Virus record (IMG/VR): IMGVR_UViG_3300008448_000113
Location: 1 to 54,025 of that record
DNA length: 54,025 nt
DNA from: a virus
Lineage: Duplodnaviria > Caudoviricetes
Strand: one strand, 5' to 3'
Below, piece by piece: positions 1 to 8,539 of this stretch (position 1 is the first letter of the stretch; every line of letters starts with the position of its first letter). The notes beneath the pieces are model-generated. The model saw nothing but the letters and a program-made list of their open reading frames with translations, had not been told where the DNA came from and did no database searches. The translations under genes were made by a program, and so were the position numbers.

Positions 1-1785
1 CCCATCGGAGTCATAGGGTCATCGGGATCTACGGGTCCAACGGGTGCAACGGGACCACAAACAATCACTGGAACCGCGGGTGTGCAGGGAGTTAGTGGTG
101 TTGCGGGTACTGCTGCGACGGGTGTACAAGGACCAACCGGACCTGTAGGTTCTACCGGACCAACGGGACCGTTGGGATATTCGGGTTCCACGGGCGTACA
201 GGGTATTACAGGTGTTACAGGGTCTACTGGACCATTAGGTTCAACAGGTCCAACGGGTGCAACAGGTGCGATAGGTCCGAGTGGACGGCAAGGAATTCAA
301 GGTATTACCGGTGTGATTGGTGTAACCGGTCCTTCTGGAGATATCGGTCCAACTGGACCCATAGGAATAACCGGACCAACTGGAGTAGGCCCCGCTGGGT
401 CAACTGGCCCTGTGGGAGAATCGGGACCGATAGGATCACAAGGAATTAGAGGAGCAACTGGACCTACCGGTGCGGCAGGACCATCGGGAAGTACAGGACC
501 AAACACATTCGGTGGTGCGGGAATTTCTGGACCAACGGGTGCAACGGGTGTCATCGGTGTAACAGGTCCAACAGGTGCACAAGGACGAACGGTATATTAT
601 GTTACCGGTGTTTGTGCGGCGGTCCACGCAAATGCAACCACAACGCATACCGACACAACAGTATATCACAGTGATACGTCAACTCCACATGGTAATTCTG
701 TTGCACATTCCAACATAACCATCGCAGGGTCACACGCTAATATCGCTGCATCACACACAGATTCAACAGCACATACGAACGCAACTACTACACACGGTGA
801 TGGTACCACAACGCACACAAATAGTAGTATTGCGTTTACAAACACGACTGCTCATAGTAACATTTCACCATCGCATAGTGATATTATCACTCACACAAAT
901 ATTTCCACAATTCACGGAGATGGTACACCACATACTAATATTGCGGCATCACACGCAAATGAAGCTGCGGTTTCACATACAGATAGTGCAACGCATTATG
1001 ATGGTGCTACGGAATTTGTTAATATTACCACACACTTCGATGTAGACCCATCACACGTAGATGGAGTACCTCACACAAACGTAAGTCCATTTCATGCAGA
1101 TGAAGCACCATCACATTCAAATTACGCAGCATCGCATGCAAATATCGCAGGTAATCATACCGATACAACCAATTTACACATAGATTACTATCTTGGTATT
1201 GACCCTGTTACGCACGGTGATACTCCTGCTAGTCACGCAGATATCACATCACCACATACAAATTATGCAGTACCGCATTCCGATGGGACTTCAAATCATT
1301 CAGATATAACAGTACCGCATTCCGATATCACAACGCATGCAAACACATATAGTACTCATTATGATCAAATAGCACATCAAGATACTGTAGCAAGTCATGC
1401 AAACTTTGTTGATCATTCTGATATCGTTGCTATACCACATTCCAATGAAACAACAAACTTTACAAATAGTGTTGTGCATACGGATATTCCTGCAACACAT
1501 ACTAATATTGCATCGCATGATGATATTACCATAACTCACACGGATATTGTGACACATACTAATATTACAGCGACTCACACCAATATAACGCCGTCACATG
1601 CAAATATATCTCCGTCGCATGCAAATGCAACACCACATACAAATATCAATATATCGCATGACGATATTACTATTACTCCAAGTCATACTAATGCAACACC
1701 ACACACAAATATTACCACCGCACACTCAAATGTAGCAGCATCGCATTCAAATGTCGCGGCATCACATTCGAATTCTACCACGTAA
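1..1785 (+). CDS. Collagen-like fibre protein with C-terminal HxD/N repeat array (5'-partial)
   Basis: Frame is open from base 1 ([15 protein letters not shown]...), so the true start lies upstream of the window. Gly-X-Y (GPT/GST/GAT) repeats run to about 585. H-x-[DN] motifs then recur every 6-9 aa from 625 to 1773. Confidence 0.85.
625..1773 (+). repeat. Coding HxD/N repeat array 1
   Basis: Units such as [14 protein letters not shown] and HANISPS; roughly 55 units estimated from length and period. Confidence 0.9.
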
Positions 1786-1790
1786 TCATT

Positions 1791-2639
1791 ATGCCACGTT
1801 TTTTTCCGCTTGGTACACCAACTACCGCTAGTATAGCCAAAGCAGCATTATTTGCGTTTACTGCAAGTATTGCTTTAAACGCAAATGTACTCACTGCATC
1901 ATTTGCTTCGGGTTCTGTTGGTGTGATGGGAGTTGGAGGACCAACCGGTCCACGAGGACCAACAGGAATATCTGCTTCTGGGTCCACTGGACCGACCGGT
2001 GCAACTGGACCAACGGGACCGGCAGGTGTAGGACCAACGGGACCGTCCGGTGTGATAGGAATAACGGGTATTACAGGAACCACAGGACCAACAGGATCTA
2101 CGGGTCCAACCGGTGCAACGGGACCAACCGGACCAACTGGAATAGTCGGTATTACAGGACCAGTTGGTCCAACGGGTATTGGGTCATTAATATCGGGAAG
2201 TACTGGTGTACAAGGTTCTACGGGAGCAACAGGTCCAACAGGTACACGAGGTGCAACGGGAGTAACAGCGGGTGTCATTGGTATTACTGGTGCTAGTGGA
2301 TTGGCAAATATTATTGGTCCTACGGGACCGGTAGGAGCAACAGGACCTACTACCATCGGTGGAACAGGACCAACCGGACCACAAGGGTCTGCAGGACCAG
2401 TTGGACCAACGGGACCGAGTGCAGACGCACCATTAACAGGTTCGTTGGGTGTTGGAGGTATTACGGGAATTCAAGGACCAACCGGAGCACAAGGTATTCG
2501 TGGAGCAGACGCAGGATGTCCAGCAGGAACCGTAGTATGTACGGGGTTATCCCCATCCAATACATCATTGTATGGATTGGTATGTGCAACATTACCAACT
2601 GGATGTGGTGGTAGTTTTACATGCCCACCGACAATCTAA
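1791..2639 (+). CDS. Collagen-like protein with Cys-rich C-terminus
   Basis: Gly-X-Y (GPTG) repeats, a hydrophobic Ala-rich N-terminal segment, and 5 Cys in the last ~40 aa. Confidence 0.85.
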
Positions 2640-2679
2640 ACTACTTATATAAGATAAATTGATTACATCGGAGTGATAA

Positions 2680-5289
2680 ATGCCAAAAGCACCAGGCAGT
2701 GTATGGGTAAGTGGAACAGAATTTCATTTTGTCGATAATACGGGTGTAGAATACTACTATATCGGTACATCGGTAGGAACTCCTGCCGGTGCAGTGCCTG
2801 GTTCTATTTGGGTCGATAGTAGTGATTTTCATTATATCGATTCGTCGGGAACGGATAGATTAATTGCAAGTACCGACTTAGGAGCAGTATCAGGAGCACG
2901 ACCAGGATCAGTTTGGGTAGAAAGTACTTTTTGGAATTGGATATCATCGGGTACAAATAAAAGAAGAGGACACACTGATGTTGCTGCAAGTCATACCGAT
3001 TTAACAACTCCCGCCGCACATACAAATGCAACTACCGCATTTGTTAATTCTACTATACCCGCATCACATACCGATGGTACTACAGCTCACACCGATGCAA
3101 CTACCACGGCATCACATAGTGATGCCACTACAACACATACGGATTTAACTACCCCCGCATCGCATAGTGATGGTACAACCCCTCATAGTGACGGAACAAC
3201 CCCCGCATCGCACAGCGATGGTACCACACCACATAGTGATGCCACAACAACTGCGTCGCACAGTAATGCAACAACACCTCACAGTGACGGTACAACCCCT
3301 GCGTCACACAGTAATGCAACAACTGCACATAGTGACGGTACAACTCCTGCATCACACAGCAATGCAACAACTGCATTTGTTAATTCTACAATAACAGCAT
3401 CGCACAGTAATGCAACAACAGCATTTGTCAATTCCACCGTACCTGCATCACATAGTGACGGAACAACTCCACATAGTGATGCTACCACACCAGCATCGCA
3501 TAGCGATGGAACAACTCCGCATAGTAACGCCACAACAACTGCTTCACACAGTGATTTAACAACACCATTTGCTAATTCTACCACACCAGCGTCGCATAGT
3601 GACGCAACTACAACATTCGTTAATTCCACAATACCTGCATCACATAGTGACGGAACAACTCCACATAGTGATGCTACCACACCAGCATCGCATAGTGATG
3701 CGACGACATCACATAGTGATGCTACAACACCCGCGTCGCATACAAATTATGCAACGCATTCTAATATAAGTACTCCACATGCAAATGCCGCATCGTCGCA
3801 TAGTGATTTCGCATCACATTCAAACGTGGCAGCTTCACATGGAAACGTAACCGGACATGCAAATACAGCTGCATCACATACCAATTATGCAACACATGCC
3901 AATGCCCCATCGTCGCACGCTAATATTATAGCACACTCAAATCAAGCGGCAAGTCATACTAATTATGCTACACATGCAAATGAAGCACCTACACACACTA
4001 ATTATGCAATACACGCAAACACACCAGCCGATCATAGTAATACGTACACCCAACACGGAAATACTCCAGGAAGTCATTCCGATACAACTATTATTCACGT
4101 AGATTATTATTTTGGTTTTCCAGAAGAAGCTCACGGAGATGTTCCGGCCAGTCATGCAGACACTTCGATAACACACGACGATGGGCCAGCGTATCATAGT
4201 AATTATGCAGCACCTCATTCAAATTATGCATTACATGGTGATGATACAATCTTCCATTCGGATGATGCATCGCATGGTGACGATACAATCTTCCACACAA
4301 ATTATGCAACGCACGATGATTCTACAAATCCCCACACAAATTATGCAACGCATGGGGACGATACAATCTTCCACACAAATTATGCATCACACACAAACTC
4401 ATCTGATCCTCATGCAAATATCATAAATCATTCTGACGGAACTACACCACATGCAAATACTTCCCCGTCACATGGAAATCAAACACCGCATGGTGATGCA
4501 ACAACCAACCCAAGTCACACCAATATCAGTCCTTCGCATTCGGATGGAACAACACCGGCAAGTCACGCGAATATTGTAGCATCACACTCAGATATAACTA
4601 TAAATTCAAGCCATACAGATATTGCGGCATCACATGCAGACGCAACAACGAATCCAAGCCACACGGATGTTTTGGCATCACATACGGATGGAACAACACC
4701 AGCAAGTCATTCAAATATTAGTCCATCGCATGCAGACGCAACAACTAATCCGAGTCATGCAAATATTAGTCCATCGCACTCGGACGCAACAACGAATCCA
4801 AGCCATACTAACATTGTTGCATCGCACTCCGATGGAACAACACCGGCAAGTCATACAGATATTGCTGCGTCACATTCCAATGCAACAACGCCAGCAAGTC
4901 ATGCAAATATAGCATCTGCACACACCAACGCAACCACAAGTCCAAGTCATGCAAATATTACCCCGGCACACACCAACGCAACCACAAGTCCAAGTCACGC
5001 AGATATTGTCGCATCACATTCTGATGCGACAACACCGGCAAGTCACGCGGACATCGTTGCTTCGCACTCGGATGGAACAACCCCCGCAAGTCACACAGAT
5101 ATTGCCGCATCACACTCTGACGGAACAACACCGTCGAGTCACGCAAATATCGCAGCATCACATTCCGATATAACCATTAACCCAAGTCATACAGATATTG
5201 TTGCATCACACGCGGACGGAACAACCAATCCAAGTCACAGTGATGGAACTACGGTGCACAGTGACCAACCTGTACTTGTTGGGGCTTGA
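2680..5289 (+). CDS. Giant HxD/N repeat protein (putative fibre, putative radical SAM substrate)
   Basis: N-terminal ~95 aa contain three PGS[VI]WV repeats, followed by ~765 aa of H-x-[DN] repeats. Confidence 0.85.
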   Translation: MPKAPGSVWVSGTEFHFVDNTGVEYYYIGTSVGTPAGAVPGSIWVDSSDFHYIDSSGTDRLIASTDLGAVSGARPGSVWVESTFWNWISSGTNKRRGHTDVAASHTDLTTPAAHTNATTAFVNSTIPASHTDGTTAHTDATTTASHSDATTTHTDLTTPASHSDGTTPHSDGTTPASHSDGTTPHSDATTTASHSNATTPHSDGTTPASHSNATTAHSDGTTPASHSNATTAFVNSTITASHSNATTAFVNSTVPASHSDGTTPHSDATTPASHSDGTTPHSNATTTASHSDLTTPFANSTTPASHSDATTTFVNSTIPASHSDGTTPHSDATTPASHSDATTSHSDATTPASHTNYATHSNISTPHANAASSHSDFASHSNVAASHGNVTGHANTAASHTNYATHANAPSSHANIIAHSNQAASHTNYATHANEAPTHTNYAIHANTPADHSNTYTQHGNTPGSHSDTTIIHVDYYFGFPEEAHGDVPASHADTSITHDDGPAYHSNYAAPHSNYALHGDDTIFHSDDASHGDDTIFHTNYATHDDSTNPHTNYATHGDDTIFHTNYASHTNSSDPHANIINHSDGTTPHANTSPSHGNQTPHGDATTNPSHTNISPSHSDGTTPASHANIVASHSDITINSSHTDIAASHADATTNPSHTDVLASHTDGTTPASHSNISPSHADATTNPSHANISPSHSDATTNPSHTNIVASHSDGTTPASHTDIAASHSNATTPASHANIASAHTNATTSPSHANITPAHTNATTSPSHADIVASHSDATTPASHADIVASHSDGTTPASHTDIAASHSDGTTPSSHANIAASHSDITINPSHTDIVASHADGTTNPSHSDGTTVHSDQPVLVGA
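2971..5265 (+). repeat. Coding HxD/N repeat array 2
   Basis: HSDGTTP/HSDATTPAS-type units with 7/9 spacing in the outer arms and 6/7 spacing in the inner arms; roughly 100 units estimated. Confidence 0.9.
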
Positions 5290-5346: not shown

Positions 5347-6648
5347 ATGACAATTGAGTTAGAACCAGTTGGAGTAGTATGTAATTTAAGTTGTCCATAT
5401 TGCTATGAACATCCGATGCGTGATGCTGGAAACTTTCGGCATAAAACGTATAGCGTCGAAAAGATGTTACAGGGATTGGAACGTGAGGGTGGTCACTTCA
5501 CATTATTTGGTGGTGAACCATTATTAACGGATATTGACGATTTAGAAACCATTTTTAAATGGGGATACGAACGTTACGGTGGTAACGGTATCCAAACAAA
5601 TGGTACGTTAATAACCGAACGTCATATTGAAATGTTTAAAAAATATAAAGTGCACGTGGGTATTTCCGTGGACGGACCAGATGATATGAATGATACTCGT
5701 TGGGCTGGTTCCTTGGAAAAGACACGGGAATCCACACAGAAGTCCATGCATGCTATCAAACGATTGCTGGATGAAAAAATGTCAATGGGTATTATTATTA
5801 CTGTCCATAAAAAGAATGGATTGCCCAAGTATAGAGAACGATTTAAAAATTGGATTCGGGAATTAAAATCTTGGGGAGCAGACGGCGCACGATTACATCC
5901 GTTGGAAGTTGATCATAGTGCTGTTGGTGAGACGTTGGCATTGTCGTCTGAACAAAATATAGAATTTTTGTTGGACATGTGGGAATTTGAAATTTCCGAA
6001 TTGAAGGGAACATTTACCTTTGATATTTTCCGTGACGTAGATTATATGATGCGTGCAGCGGATAATAGTGCAACGTGTACATTCTTGGCATGTGACCCAT
6101 ACACAACACACGCAGTACAGGGAATTGATTCACAAGGTAATCAATCAAATTGTGGTCGTGGTAATAAAGACGGTATCAATTGGATTAAAGCCCAATATGA
6201 CGGATTTGAACGACAAATGGCATTGTATCACACCCCAGAAGAACATGGTGGTTGCCAAGGATGTAGATTCTTTGTAATGTGTAAGGGGCATTGTCCGGGT
6301 ACTGGATTGGATATGGATTGGAGAAATAAACCAGATTCGTGTCTAAGTTGGAAAGTTTCATTTGGTATTTATGAAAAGTTGATGTTGAAACGAGGTGAAA
6401 CACCGTTATCATTACATCCAGACTTAAAGAAATACGAAGAGTTAATGTTACACGGATTCAGCCGTGGGGTTGAATTACGTTTGTCTCAAATCAAAAAACA
6501 TTTGGAAACGGGATATAATCTCGACGCATATATAGAAGCAACATTGGAAAACATGAGACGAGGATTTCCAAAACCACACGCCGACCACACAGATAATACA
6601 GGCAAATATAAACAAGAGTATTTTGAGAAGTACGGTATAGAACTTTAA
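5347..6648 (+). CDS. Radical SAM/SPASM-domain peptide maturase-like enzyme
   Basis: CNLSCPYC (CxxxCxxC), FGGEPL, QTNG and ISVDGP motifs. C-terminal Cys cluster CTFLAC...C...CQGCRFFVMCKGHCPG...C is SPASM-like. Confidence 0.9.
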   Translation: MTIELEPVGVVCNLSCPYCYEHPMRDAGNFRHKTYSVEKMLQGLEREGGHFTLFGGEPLLTDIDDLETIFKWGYERYGGNGIQTNGTLITERHIEMFKKYKVHVGISVDGPDDMNDTRWAGSLEKTRESTQKSMHAIKRLLDEKMSMGIIITVHKKNGLPKYRERFKNWIRELKSWGADGARLHPLEVDHSAVGETLALSSEQNIEFLLDMWEFEISELKGTFTFDIFRDVDYMMRAADNSATCTFLACDPYTTHAVQGIDSQGNQSNCGRGNKDGINWIKAQYDGFERQMALYHTPEEHGGCQGCRFFVMCKGHCPGTGLDMDWRNKPDSCLSWKVSFGIYEKLMLKRGETPLSLHPDLKKYEELMLHGFSRGVELRLSQIKKHLETGYNLDAYIEATLENMRRGFPKPHADHTDNTGKYKQEYFEKYGIEL

Positions 6649-6666
6649 AACATAAGAGGATATGTT

Positions 6667-7050
6667 ATGGAAAACGGAATATTACACGCAGACCACATTG
6701 ACGAAACTGGTGCATACGCACGACGATTTCAAGTTGTTAAGGAGTTGGTAGACAATGGAACATTGACACAAATTCCAGAAGAATTTCGTGTAGGTGCAAC
6801 CGCATTATCACAGCAGGAAGTAGTTCCTGTTACACAAGAAAATTCCAAATTTTCATTTTATGATGAGTTTGGTCAAAAGCACGCAGACCACGTAGATGAA
6901 ACGGGTGAGTATCGTAAAGCATGGGAATCCATGTTTGGTCCTATGAACGGGGATAATAATGTATCATCCGAAGATACTCCTGCAAATACCGAATGGAAAT
7001 CGTTCCTACAACAGTTAATTGCAGAAGAAAAAGCAAAACTCAATATTTAA
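6667..7050 (+). CDS. Small acidic protein with two HADHxDETGxY motifs
   Basis: AGAGG SD; the motif is shared with the radical SAM C-terminus. Confidence 0.75.
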   Translation: MENGILHADHIDETGAYARRFQVVKELVDNGTLTQIPEEFRVGATALSQQEVVPVTQENSKFSFYDEFGQKHADHVDETGEYRKAWESMFGPMNGDNNVSSEDTPANTEWKSFLQQLIAEEKAKLNI

Positions 7051-7066
7051 TTTTAACCCAAAGGTT

Positions 7067-8539
7067 ATGCAACGTTTAAATAGTGTATTACCAGATTGGA
7101 CACGAATACAGTGGACCAACATGGAAAATAAAATAAAGTATGGTCCAATTTTAAATTCCATAACACATGCGTGGAAACAAATTGAACGAATGTCTGTTGT
7201 ACACGATTTACGATCCTGTACATTAGATAGTATTAGTTCCACGGAACTTATAGCACTGACAGAAGAATACAAGAAATACGGTGTGTACATTGTTCCATTG
7301 GCAAAGGAAGGAATAACACACACATATTCTTCTACAACACAACCATATATTAACGGTAAACCCTATCGTTTGCGTGTGGTGTTTACAAAGTCGGAAGAAC
7401 TGGCACAAGAATTTTTCACGGTGTGGAATGCACCGGTGCTGGATAATTCCCGAATTGGTGAACTTCTTGGGTATCCAAAGTGTTGTACCGATTTTTATAA
7501 AAAGTATTGGGTTGATCAACGATTTGTAGATACTACGTGGGTAATGTCGGTTGATAAATTACCAATTGACGAAGAGGCACGAACCGTACATATTAAATCC
7601 GACACACCACCAGAATGTAATATTTTGTGGCGTTGGCAGGGTGTACGATTGGTTTCGCATTTACCATGTTCATTTGATTGTGAACATACGGTTGATATTG
7701 GTAGACGAAATGCAGAACTTGGACGTAAACTTGGATTCAATGCTGAAATGGATTTGGCATACGAGTTGTTGACTTGGCCTGTGGAATGGTCTGCGTTACA
7801 CGGTATTGCGGAAATTAAAACGCCAATCAACAAAGTATCCTCACGTACAGATATGACACCGTGGAAATACACAGTACAAAAACATAGTGATATGTATCCA
7901 GAAGATGGCGCATCGGGTACCATGTATCCGTACACAGAAAAGAAACTCAAGATTAAACCAATAACTACAACTAAGTCGTTTTTGAAATCACTTGAAGATA
8001 CATCTGTTTGGGAAGAAAACGGATTCCGTTACAAGGAAGCAATGGATCATTTTCACGAAGTGGTAGTTGAAGCAATTGGTAATATGAAGTATGTACCTTC
8101 GGGTAATGTCCTTGACCTTGGTTGTGGTAATGGTGTATTGTTAGGTCGTGTTGTTGGAGACAGAGCAGACTTAATTCCACATGGTGTTGAAATGGACCGT
8201 CAACGATGTATGTCGGCAGCAACCACTATCCATTGGGGATATTTCACGTTGGGTAATATATTCGACCTCAATACATGGAAGGAAGATTATTATAGTATGG
8301 TGCTGTTGATGCCAGGACGTTTGATGGAAACTGCAAAAGAAACGGCAGAGGCATTCAGAAAACAATTATACGATAAGACAGACTTACTACTTATTAATCT
8401 GACATGTGATTGGACTGTTAAGTATAAGACTATCGATAATATGATGGTGTTAACCGGTCTAGACAAAGATTGGGAACCGGCTGGTCCTGTTGTACATAGA
8501 AAGGATGATGTCGCTCAATTATTTAAGAGGAAAGTGTAA
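7067..8539 (+). CDS. Cys-motif (DUF483-like) domain fused to a class I SAM methyltransferase
   Basis: GELLGYPKCC and HLPCSFDC motifs; C-terminal VLDLGCGNG. Start refined to ATG 7067 after AAGG. Confidence 0.7.
   Translation: MQRLNSVLPDWTRIQWTNMENKIKYGPILNSITHAWKQIERMSVVHDLRSCTLDSISSTELIALTEEYKKYGVYIVPLAKEGITHTYSSTTQPYINGKPYRLRVVFTKSEELAQEFFTVWNAPVLDNSRIGELLGYPKCCTDFYKKYWVDQRFVDTTWVMSVDKLPIDEEARTVHIKSDTPPECNILWRWQGVRLVSHLPCSFDCEHTVDIGRRNAELGRKLGFNAEMDLAYELLTWPVEWSALHGIAEIKTPINKVSSRTDMTPWKYTVQKHSDMYPEDGASGTMYPYTEKKLKIKPITTTKSFLKSLEDTSVWEENGFRYKEAMDHFHEVVVEAIGNMKYVPSGNVLDLGCGNGVLLGRVVGDRADLIPHGVEMDRQRCMSAATTIHWGYFTLGNIFDLNTWKEDYYSMVLLMPGRLMETAKETAEAFRKQLYDKTDLLLINLTCDWTVKYKTIDNMMVLTGLDKDWEPAGPVVHRKDDVAQLFKRKV

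Follow-up and report, generated by a model that had tools for sequence, protein, structure and literature searches.

Bartual et al. reportedly described in 2010 an out-and-back topology for the chain of gp37, the protein at the tip of the long tail fibre of phage T4. The gp37 needle is a trimer in which seven iron atoms are bound by histidines, as stated in the part of PMC6957217 that was available. Here we describe two proteins, named A and B, that are encoded at the beginning of a viral DNA of 54,025 bases (the single IMG/VR record IMGVR_UViG_3300008448_000113, Caudoviricetes; this whole stretch is called the window). Both proteins carry long arrays in which His-x-[Asp/Asn] returns every 6-9 residues, and in both the spacing of the motifs on one side of a central tip is the mirror image of the spacing on the other side. 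A motif and its mirror partner are together called a rung. Downstream of the arrays lie genes for a radical S-adenosylmethionine (SAM) enzyme with a SPASM domain and for a DUF483 protein, which we refer to as the module.

The likeness to gp37 would be that of a thin fibre tip, with a chain that, on our reading, goes out to a receptor-binding end and back and with histidines along its length. In gp37, however, the motif is H-x-H, which binds iron on the axis of the trimer, whereas the motif here is H-x-[DN] with free substitution of Phe, and the H-x-H pattern of gp37 was not found. Seven sites in gp37 compare with 28 and 51 rungs in A and B, which also have exactly palindromic spacing and natural relatives split over two or three genes. 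The chaperones gp38 and gp57A serve T4, in contrast to the radical-SAM/DUF483 module of this locus. Moreover, B had no counterpart among solved structures: a profile search of the PDB sequences gave a single match with an E value of 0.71, and a Foldseek search of the PDB gave 0 matches at E<=0.001 with a model that is mostly of low confidence.

A second comparison is with the triceptides, peptides with three-residue cyclophanes that radical-SAM/SPASM enzymes (XncB, OscB, YxdB, HaaB, YhhB, HtkB and ChlB) produce. The available parts of PMC11002830 and PMC11499958 list Phe-Asn, Tyr-Asp, Trp-Asn/Asp, His-Ala, His-Arg and His-Lys as known links, and state that the enzymes accept His-to-Phe swaps. 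The triceptide motif has the form aromatic-X-X3 with a variable middle residue, which was found here in 802 paired motifs, and in both cases a radical-SAM/SPASM enzyme is encoded beside a repeat-bearing substrate, here a putative one. The candidate substrates here, however, are not short leader-core peptides but virion-type proteins of 290-870 residues with up to 102 motifs, and the enzyme of the window scores below every cut-off for a cyclophane maturase. Neither His-x-Asp nor His-x-Asn is among the motifs reported in the available parts of the same two sources (PMC11002830, PMC11499958), and the cross-link considered below is a proposal made from sequence. The topology would be that of fold-back phage fibres, but the comparison with gp37 failed on motif and on similarity, and that with the triceptides on the enzyme score and on the type of substrate.

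Among characterised radical-SAM enzymes, the anaerobic sulfatase-maturating enzyme (anSME) provides both the best full-length model and the best solved relative of the window enzyme (80 bits; E 6.7e-13). anSME acts on the side-chain C-beta of a protein substrate. The score is nonetheless far under the 349-bit cut-off, and neither array has a [CS]-x-[PA]-x-R site. The same three-gene cassette, consisting of an array protein, a radical-SAM protein (48% identical to that of the window) and a DUF483 protein, is present as the 'rSAM module' in the Thermus phages Cumys and phiMa (PMC11437467). The available part of that paper calls two of the module proteins unknown and suggests DNA modification, but contains no mention of an HxD array, a central tip or a link to a fibre. 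Finally, A and a third, 282-residue protein of the window share Gly-X-Y repeats, with Pfam Collagen and PHROG tail-fibre matches, with the collagen-like tail fibres of phages; the difference is that the distal part of A is a histidine ladder. Our literature search found no account of a mirrored histidine ladder, of split-arm forms, of the rung rule described below or of a phage fibre modified by a radical-SAM enzyme, and only PMC11437467, in its available part, mentions the gene module.

Mirror symmetry and rung pairing in proteins A and B

Protein A is encoded on the + strand by an open reading frame (ORF; 1-1785) that is cut at the contig start and comprises at least 594 residues, collagen repeats followed by the histidine array. 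The collagen-like Gly-X-Y part (1-624), open at the 5' end of the contig, matches Pfam Collagen with an E value of 1.9e-22 and several PHROG tail-fibre families, the best being phrog_5073 (E 1.1e-53). In the array (625-1785), the outward, N-terminal arm (625-1176, + strand) holds 28 motifs from His209 to the tip His393, the tip (1177-1212, + strand) is a 12-residue interval with the sequence DYYLG, and the return, C-terminal arm (1213-1785, + strand) runs from His405 to His589 and ends in a short tail and the stop codon. Protein B (2680-5289, + strand, 869 residues) has no collagen part; a 97-residue N-terminal domain with three PGSxWV repeats (2680-2970) precedes an array of 772 residues (2971-5289). 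The outward arm of B (2971-4095) extends from His98 to His473, its tip (4096-4131) is again a 12-residue interval, with DYYFG, and its return arm (4132-5265) extends from His485 to the last motif, His860, followed by a C-terminal QPVLVGA strand and the stop codon (5266-5289); all these parts are on the + strand.

A Phe-x-Asn stands at the expected place wherever the His-to-His gap is 13 or 16, and we therefore scored the motif as [His/Phe]-x-[Asp/Asn], with Phe counted at the His position. Matches outside the register of the ladder were excluded, namely FVD at residue 469 of A and the matches at residues 17 and 84 in the N-terminal domain of B. When the intervals were read outward from the tip, 27 of 27 were the same in both arms of A and 50 of 50 in both arms of B. 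As a control, reading both arms in the same direction gave agreement at only 13 of the 27 and 6 of the 50 intervals. All 56 motifs of A and all 102 of B were paired, and the centre of symmetry is the Gly of the shared DYY[L/F]G turn, Gly399 in A (399.0) and Gly479 in B (479.0). In each protein the two arms are of equal length: in A, His209-His393 and His405-His589 span 184 residues each, and in B, His98-His473 and His485-His860 span 375 each.

The interval series of A is aperiodic, with 6, 7, 8 and 9 mixed, and the probability of one given order for that composition is 1.3e-9. In support of this, shuffling the order of the intervals 200 times for each protein produced at most 17 mirrored pairs in A, where 28 are observed, and at most 25 in B, where there are 51. 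Each arm of B contains 256 residues of 7/9 spacing on the outside and 119 residues of 6/7 spacing next to the tip. Note that calling the tip by the largest motif-free gap was discarded, because it misplaced the tip in many proteins and made the resulting arm correlation of -0.29 meaningless; it failed on B too, as the motif-like FWN of the N-terminal domain was counted. Tips were called instead by the count of mirror pairs and by a test of aromatic/Cys density.

A sequence-only reading of the window had claimed that both arrays are mirror-symmetric around a common tip motif, and the intervals bear this out more strongly than it had stated. The tips lie at the array midpoints, where it had placed them (the first and last motif His are at nucleotides 625 and 1765 for A, 2971 and 5257 for B), and the interval analysis of B reproduced the order 7/9, 6/7, tip, 6/7, 7/9 that it had given for the second array. 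Its view of the two genes as a short and a long version agrees with the DYY[L/F]G turn found in both. The 22-residue break that it had described in each array stands only in part. The stretches at 1177-1242 and 4096-4161 are present in the translation, with 14 of 22 residues in common, but the break itself is a single 12-residue His-to-His interval (residues 393-405 in A and 473-485 in B), and the remainder of each stretch is one ordinary, conserved unit. The Phe-for-His substitutions, the presence of at least one His in every rung and the neighbouring radical-SAM/DUF483 genes go beyond what it had noticed.

An origin of the symmetry in inverted DNA repeats was considered and rejected: no long inverted repeat was found behind it, only 8 pairs of 14-26 nucleotides. 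The tandem DNA copies within the arrays are only 58-91% alike and are therefore old, and since the two tips are identical at 87 of 141 nucleotide columns, recent gene conversion between them is unlikely. Both arrays are devoid of Lys, Arg, Cys, Met and Trp and contain about 19% Thr, 13% His and 8% Asp. Without Lys and Arg they would resist trypsin. The charge of the arrays is net negative unless His is protonated or metals are bound.

We then compared the two members of each rung, over 401 rungs or 802 paired motifs. His faces His in 225 rungs and Phe faces His in 174, whereas Phe faces Phe in just 2. Shuffling the partners within each protein gave an expectation of 26.4 +/- 3.5 Phe-Phe rungs, and none of 5000 shuffles gave 2 or fewer. 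The phages of loci L009-L013 are related, which inflates this count but not the direction of the effect. The paired motifs comprise 325 HxD, 299 HxN, 177 FxN and a single FxD, with a variable second position (T 376, S 285, A 49, G 31, V 29, and others). The third residue covaries as well: a His motif that faces a Phe motif ends in Asn 140 times and in Asp 34 times, while the rungs with two His have two Asp in 104 cases, one Asp and one Asn in 83 and two Asn in 38. This contact-type covariation spans 12 to 750 residues, or different polypeptides. Of all the evidence, the rung covariation speaks most strongly for arms that lie alongside each other with their motifs matched.

Arm length, split genes and tips in the relatives

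Searching with a radical-SAM protein alignment gathered 64 viral contigs. Relatives whose enzyme is 74-82% identical to that of the window were taken as the window clade; note that the relatives counted here are not phylogenetically independent. Of the motif pairs possible, single-chain relatives in this clade formed 20 of 20, 12 of 13, 19 of 19 and 14 of 16. In two-gene forms the chain is split at the tip into adjacent genes, and the mirror holds between the genes, with 44 cross-gene pairs in L009 (46 and 45 motifs), 47 in L010 (48 and 48), 44 in L012 (45 and 44), 38 in L013 (40 and 39) and 31 in L007 (34 and 33), where shuffling gave at most 18-21. In L009 and L010 the collagen type exists as three-gene forms, where the outward arm is itself in two pieces and the return-arm protein pairs with both of them (26 of 28 and 10 of 14 in L009; 27 of 30 and 10 of 14 in L010).

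As the sequence-only reading had anticipated, the arms of homologues stay equal while their length varies, with 87 to 375 residues per arm over 13 proteins or gene pairs in the window clade. The tip, which it had expected to vary most, is indeed the most variable part: over the same 13 it goes from a 7-residue loop up to Cys-rich knobs of 40-57 residues or a break in the chain. Among the array proteins of the loci examined, the DYY[L/F]G turn was seen within the array only in the two proteins of the window. Moreover, the position of an irregular aromatic/Cys-rich segment is 0.4-0.6 of the array length in 28 of 37 viral relatives (p 5e-13; about 20% expected by chance), in 16 of 24 complete proteins among 143 newly listed by a search of 50%-identity representatives (p 9e-7) and in 15 of 28 arrays from bacterial genome loci (p 8e-5), although these p-values overstate independence because the sequences within each set are related.

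The distant relatives are Thermus phages and many proteins of about 300 residues with HxD every 4-5 residues. Their motifs are almost purely HxD, with Tyr as a further residue in the aromatic place. The exact mirror belongs to the window clade and is weak in these distant members. Array proteins in the relatives range from 124 to 1194 residues and include fusions to collagen or tail-like domains. Four kinds of carrier were seen: the N-terminal domain of B, collagen, large proteins and split genes. The large proteins have weak PHROG matches, including one to a 'virion structural protein' family. From the collagen fusions, the PHROG names and the carrier proteins, A and B appear to be fibre proteins of an uncultured tailed phage.

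Protein B itself matched no Pfam, NCBIfam or PHROG family. Its N-terminal domain belongs to a small family: among 1.84 billion proteins, a threshold of E<=1e-3 gave 399 cluster representatives and one of E<=1e-10 gave 136. A homologue search with a 288-residue relative returned 28 proteins, all named 'hypothetical protein' and none with a Pfam domain. When B was compared with phage records by tblastn, only the N-terminal domain was matched, in 2 Thermus phages, and the array of A gave no match in 50,697 phage records with the low-complexity filter on, which may hide array matches.

The radical-SAM/DUF483 module and the fold-back reading

The enzyme is encoded directly after B (5347-6648, + strand) and matches Pfam Radical_SAM with an E value of 2.1e-16. 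Its CX3CX2C and CX2CX5CX3C motifs and flanking Cys are invariant in alignment A1, and together with the Pfam Radical_SAM and Fer4_12 matches they identify a radical-SAM enzyme with a SPASM domain. The best model, anSME, reached 80.2 bits over residues 6-346, compared with a cut-off of 349.45, and models of cyclophane-forming maturases matched the N-terminal half (AmcB 67.6 bits with a cut-off of 425, YhhB 66.1 with 445, GrrM/OscB 53.2 with 310, FxsB 46.5 with 370 and XyeB 42.3 with 450). The nearest solved structures are anSME (6.7e-13) and the triceptide synthase ChlB (1.2e-6). At its C-terminus the enzyme has a tail with HADHTD (residues 411-416, nucleotides 6577-6594), and 47 of 60 viral enzymes have at least two HxD in their last 70 residues. 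Such a tail might serve as a pseudo-substrate or a docking strand, or it might bind metal. Elsewhere, in the radical-SAM ORFs of L003-L066, enzyme tails carry up to seven HGD-type repeats.

The DUF483 domain is fused to a class I SAM methyltransferase domain in a second module protein (7019-8539, + strand; Pfam DUF483 E 2.1e-6, AlphaFold mean pLDDT, the predicted local distance difference test, 86.7). The match to DUF483 (PF04467) has 28.2 bits, above the gathering cut-off of 25. In alignment A3, with 33 sequences, C139, C140, H198 and C205 are invariant and Cys201 and His245 nearly so; this conserved set looks like a metal or catalytic site. The top structure matches of the model are all SAM methyltransferases and fall in the C-terminal half, and because this half dominated the structure search, the fold of the DUF483 half went unmatched. 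A search of the protein Atlas found only DUF483 clusters and 'hypothetical protein' clusters, of which the nearest carry PF04467 and are mostly viral, and no functional study of DUF483 was found among the papers listed.

Arrays and module occur together in most of the viral loci. An ORF with at least 10 H-x-[DN] motifs is present in 55 of the 64 viral loci and an ORF of the DUF483 type, recognised by GYPxCC, in 51 of the 64. A recognisable enzyme ORF was found in 60 of the 64; 53 of these 60 have an array ORF on the same strand, which in 39 of the 53 loci ends no more than 120 nucleotides from the enzyme start. In Thermus phage phiMa the gene order is a 342-residue array protein with the same N-terminal domain as B, the radical-SAM protein and DUF483. 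In Thermus phage phiLo (L002), which has the enzyme and the methyltransferase, two array genes (633 and 478 residues) lie about 5 kb away on the opposite strand (2-3346, minus); IS605-type transposase genes are directly upstream of the phiLo enzyme. Bacterial genomes from a wide range of phyla provided 46 loci, of which 24 contain an array with 10 or more motifs and 30 a GYPxCC ORF. In some bacterial loci a protein of 1300-2000 residues directly upstream ends in a short HxD run of about 5-10 motifs with no obvious return arm (L086, 2-5944; L100, 1987-5994; L091, 431-5311). One Bradyrhizobium locus (L104) has the enzyme and DUF483 but showed no array on inspection, and no array that reaches 10 motifs turned up when the other Bradyrhizobium loci were scanned.

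AlphaFold2 was run on full-length B with an alignment of 32 sequences. Residues 1-99 were predicted with pLDDT >90 and as all beta, a single chain with the three internal repeats. The only confident strand outside this domain comprises residues 865-868, in a last block of nine residues with pLDDT 87. Since this strand is at the extreme end of the chain and the single other folded part is the N-terminal domain, the model suggests that the C-terminus docks there. Most relatives with this N-terminal domain, including the return-arm proteins of split forms, have a similar xP-hydrophobic C-terminal end.

The mirrored spacing, the matched changes of length, the split versions, the rung covariation and the co-located chain ends together indicate that the chain goes out, turns and comes back in register. 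We consider it very likely that the chain, once it has reached the tip, comes back antiparallel and strictly in register, each motif opposite another, as a thin needle. At the base there would be an attachment module, a collagen triple helix in A and the three-repeat beta domain in B, with the ladder behind it. The turn would be at the Gly of DYY[L/F]G, with one His or more retained in each rung, and docking of the C-terminal strand on the N-terminal domain would close the loop in B. At 3.3 Å per residue the extended needle is estimated at about 60 nm for A and 120 nm for B. The variable tip has about an even chance of being the receptor-binding end.

That the radical-SAM/SPASM enzyme and the DUF483(-methyltransferase) protein act on the ladders is, in our view, quite likely. 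The motif has the aromatic-X-X3 form of the triceptides, and enzymatic cross-linking is therefore the leading reading of what they do. We propose tentatively, and would not put it at even chances, that each motif is cross-linked from its aromatic residue to a C-beta, in the manner of triceptides, or possibly that the links cross the rung, which would staple the needle. More tentative again is the full proposal that a virus-encoded radical-SAM enzyme staples a virion fibre some 50-100 times, with one cyclophane-type link per motif or rung, giving a needle resistant to protease and heat whose rails may be separate polypeptides. If the fibre were stapled in this way, the need for one His or more in each rung would come from the chemistry by which the link is made. 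Taken as a whole, fold-back ladder fibres with a neighbouring modifying module are probably the best explanation of the locus.

Several observations weigh against this explanation or parts of it. Local palindromes are trivial inside the periodic 7/9 zones of B, so that the weight for B falls on the equal lengths of the zones (256 + 119 per side) and on the mirrored, irregular inner 18 intervals. The intervals 7 and 9 are odd and would put successive His on opposite faces of a flat beta ribbon, which argues against a plain hairpin, and AlphaFold2 left residues 101-859 of B at pLDDT <50 and without secondary structure. In the relatives, a gapped mirror score exceeded the shuffles with z>2 in only 10 of 31 distant members and was negative in 4. 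The sequence-only reading had tied its case to a central motif in the homologues; this holds for the 28 of 37 viral relatives and 16 of 24 representatives given above, but the aromatic centre is off-centre in the remaining 9 and 8. The two-gene pair of L011 is mismatched, with 26 pairs from 39 and 44 motifs. Its outward-arm protein is 40 residues shorter than that of L012, while its return-arm ORF has the same length and coordinates as that of L012 (L011 5936-7006 and 7030-7932), and the mismatch is either a repeat collapsed in assembly or a natural mismatched needle. Regarding the enzyme, its scores are far below every family cut-off (cyclophane maturases 42-68 bits, cut-offs 310-450), and it occurs without an array of at least 10 motifs in 9 of 64 viral and 22 of 46 bacterial loci. 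Finally, His-Asp charge pairing accounts more simply than enzyme specificity for the scarcity of FxD and for the surplus of Asn facing Phe, which speaks somewhat against the cross-link.

Could the symmetry be a by-product of periodic, low-complexity repeats, in a disordered linker or a parallel beta solenoid? The triviality of the 7/9 palindromes and the lack of predicted structure in the array would fit such a view. It does not account for the aperiodic series of A, mirrored at 27 of 27 intervals (p 1.3e-9), for a mirror that persists across separate genes or for the avoidance of Phe-Phe rungs, and the DNA has no long inverted repeats and only old tandem copies (58-91% alike); we regard it as the least probable of the alternatives, and it was already disfavoured. 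Hardly more probable is that the arrays are multi-core precursors, cut to small modified peptides in the manner of a polyprecursor of RiPPs (peptides that ribosomes make and that are modified after translation), and are not fibres. Repeated aromatic-x-[DN] cores next to a peptide-maturase-like enzyme are what one would see in that case. Mirrored spacing and covariation across the arms, on the other hand, make sense only with paired halves, collagen and large tail-like proteins are among the fusion partners of the arrays, and scans of the cassette with Pfam, NCBIfam and PHROG revealed no protease gene.

The remaining alternatives concern the module and the bonding of the rungs. If the radical-SAM/DUF483 module were unrelated to the arrays and modified DNA, the ladder would fold unaided. 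The available part of PMC11437467 places homologues in cyanobacterial genomes beside deazapurine DNA-modification genes and proposes an unknown DNA modification, and the 22 of 46 bacterial loci without a long array point the same way. This is improbable, however, since arrays on four different carrier modules all adjoin the enzyme, the nearest characterised relatives of the enzyme all act on peptide or protein side chains, and neither the arrays, nor the HxD motifs in the tails of 47 of 60 enzymes, nor the short HxD tails on the upstream proteins of 1300-2000 residues in some bacterial loci would be explained. A needle with a metal core, like the tip of the T4 long tail fibre, is compatible with the fold-back and differs only in how the rungs are bonded: in a trimer, facing His (and Asp) on the axis would bind Fe or Zn at each rung, and the module proteins would be assembly or metal-delivery factors, or unrelated. 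The iron-holding histidines of the gp37 trimer (PMC6957217, available part) offer a precedent, and A should be a trimer by virtue of its collagen part. The arrays have about 8% Asp and 13% His but neither Lys nor Arg, so that their charge must be balanced by cations or by protonated His; Asp is favoured in the rungs with two His (DD 104, DN 83, NN 38), and the distant members are almost purely HxD. Yet Phe takes the place of His in 177 of 802 paired motifs, and in 140 of 401 rungs an HxN faces an FxN, which leaves one His and no carboxylate and makes a poor metal site. The motif is also not the H-x-H of gp37, no solved fibre was matched in sequence or fold by PDB profile search or Foldseek, and the SPASM radical-SAM enzyme would be left without a role. 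A metal core is the main rival of enzymatic cross-linking, with a chance somewhat below that reading and well under even.

Were the fold-back reading true, it would mean a design rule readable from sequence, by which rails are mirrored, lengthened, shortened or split only in matched fashion. The relatives would then be a natural series of needles with arms of 87-375 residues, a testable model of how register is kept in long thin fibres and a scaffold of tunable length. If the enzyme modifies the ladder, peptide cross-linking chemistry known so far only from small natural products would also build virus particles, and the unexplained 'rSAM module' of the Thermus phages would acquire a substrate. 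Stapling, if it occurs, would extend RiPP-style carbon-carbon cross-linking for the first time to a large structural protein, and for the first time to a virus particle. With phiMa and Cumys there are cultured carriers (Thermus thermophilus HB8), so both the fold-back and the modification ideas are directly testable.

Other genes of the window

Two further ORFs lie among the genes described above. Between the radical-SAM and DUF483 genes, a 127-residue protein (6667-7050, + strand) contains two HADHxDETGxY motifs that resemble the tail of the enzyme. It matched no Pfam, NCBIfam or PHROG family, and a counterpart of 128-138 residues occupies the same position in all 13 loci of the window clade (L003-L015). 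Between A and B lies a third fibre-type gene, which encodes the 282-residue collagen-like protein (1791-2639, + strand), Cys-rich at its C-terminal end and lacking a histidine ladder. The Pfam Collagen match of this protein has an E value of 1.2e-19, and with PF01391 it scored 70.3 bits and protein A 79.2, both above the cut-off of 27.2, in keeping with Gly-X-Y triple-helix repeats. An N-terminal FFPxGTPTT segment of the 282-residue protein resembles the start of full-length A-type relatives, a likeness that suggests a common attachment site. Nearly all long ORFs of the window are on the + strand, and the DUF483-methyltransferase gene is followed by replication genes, with helicases, a recombinase, ribonucleotide reductase and DNA polymerase.

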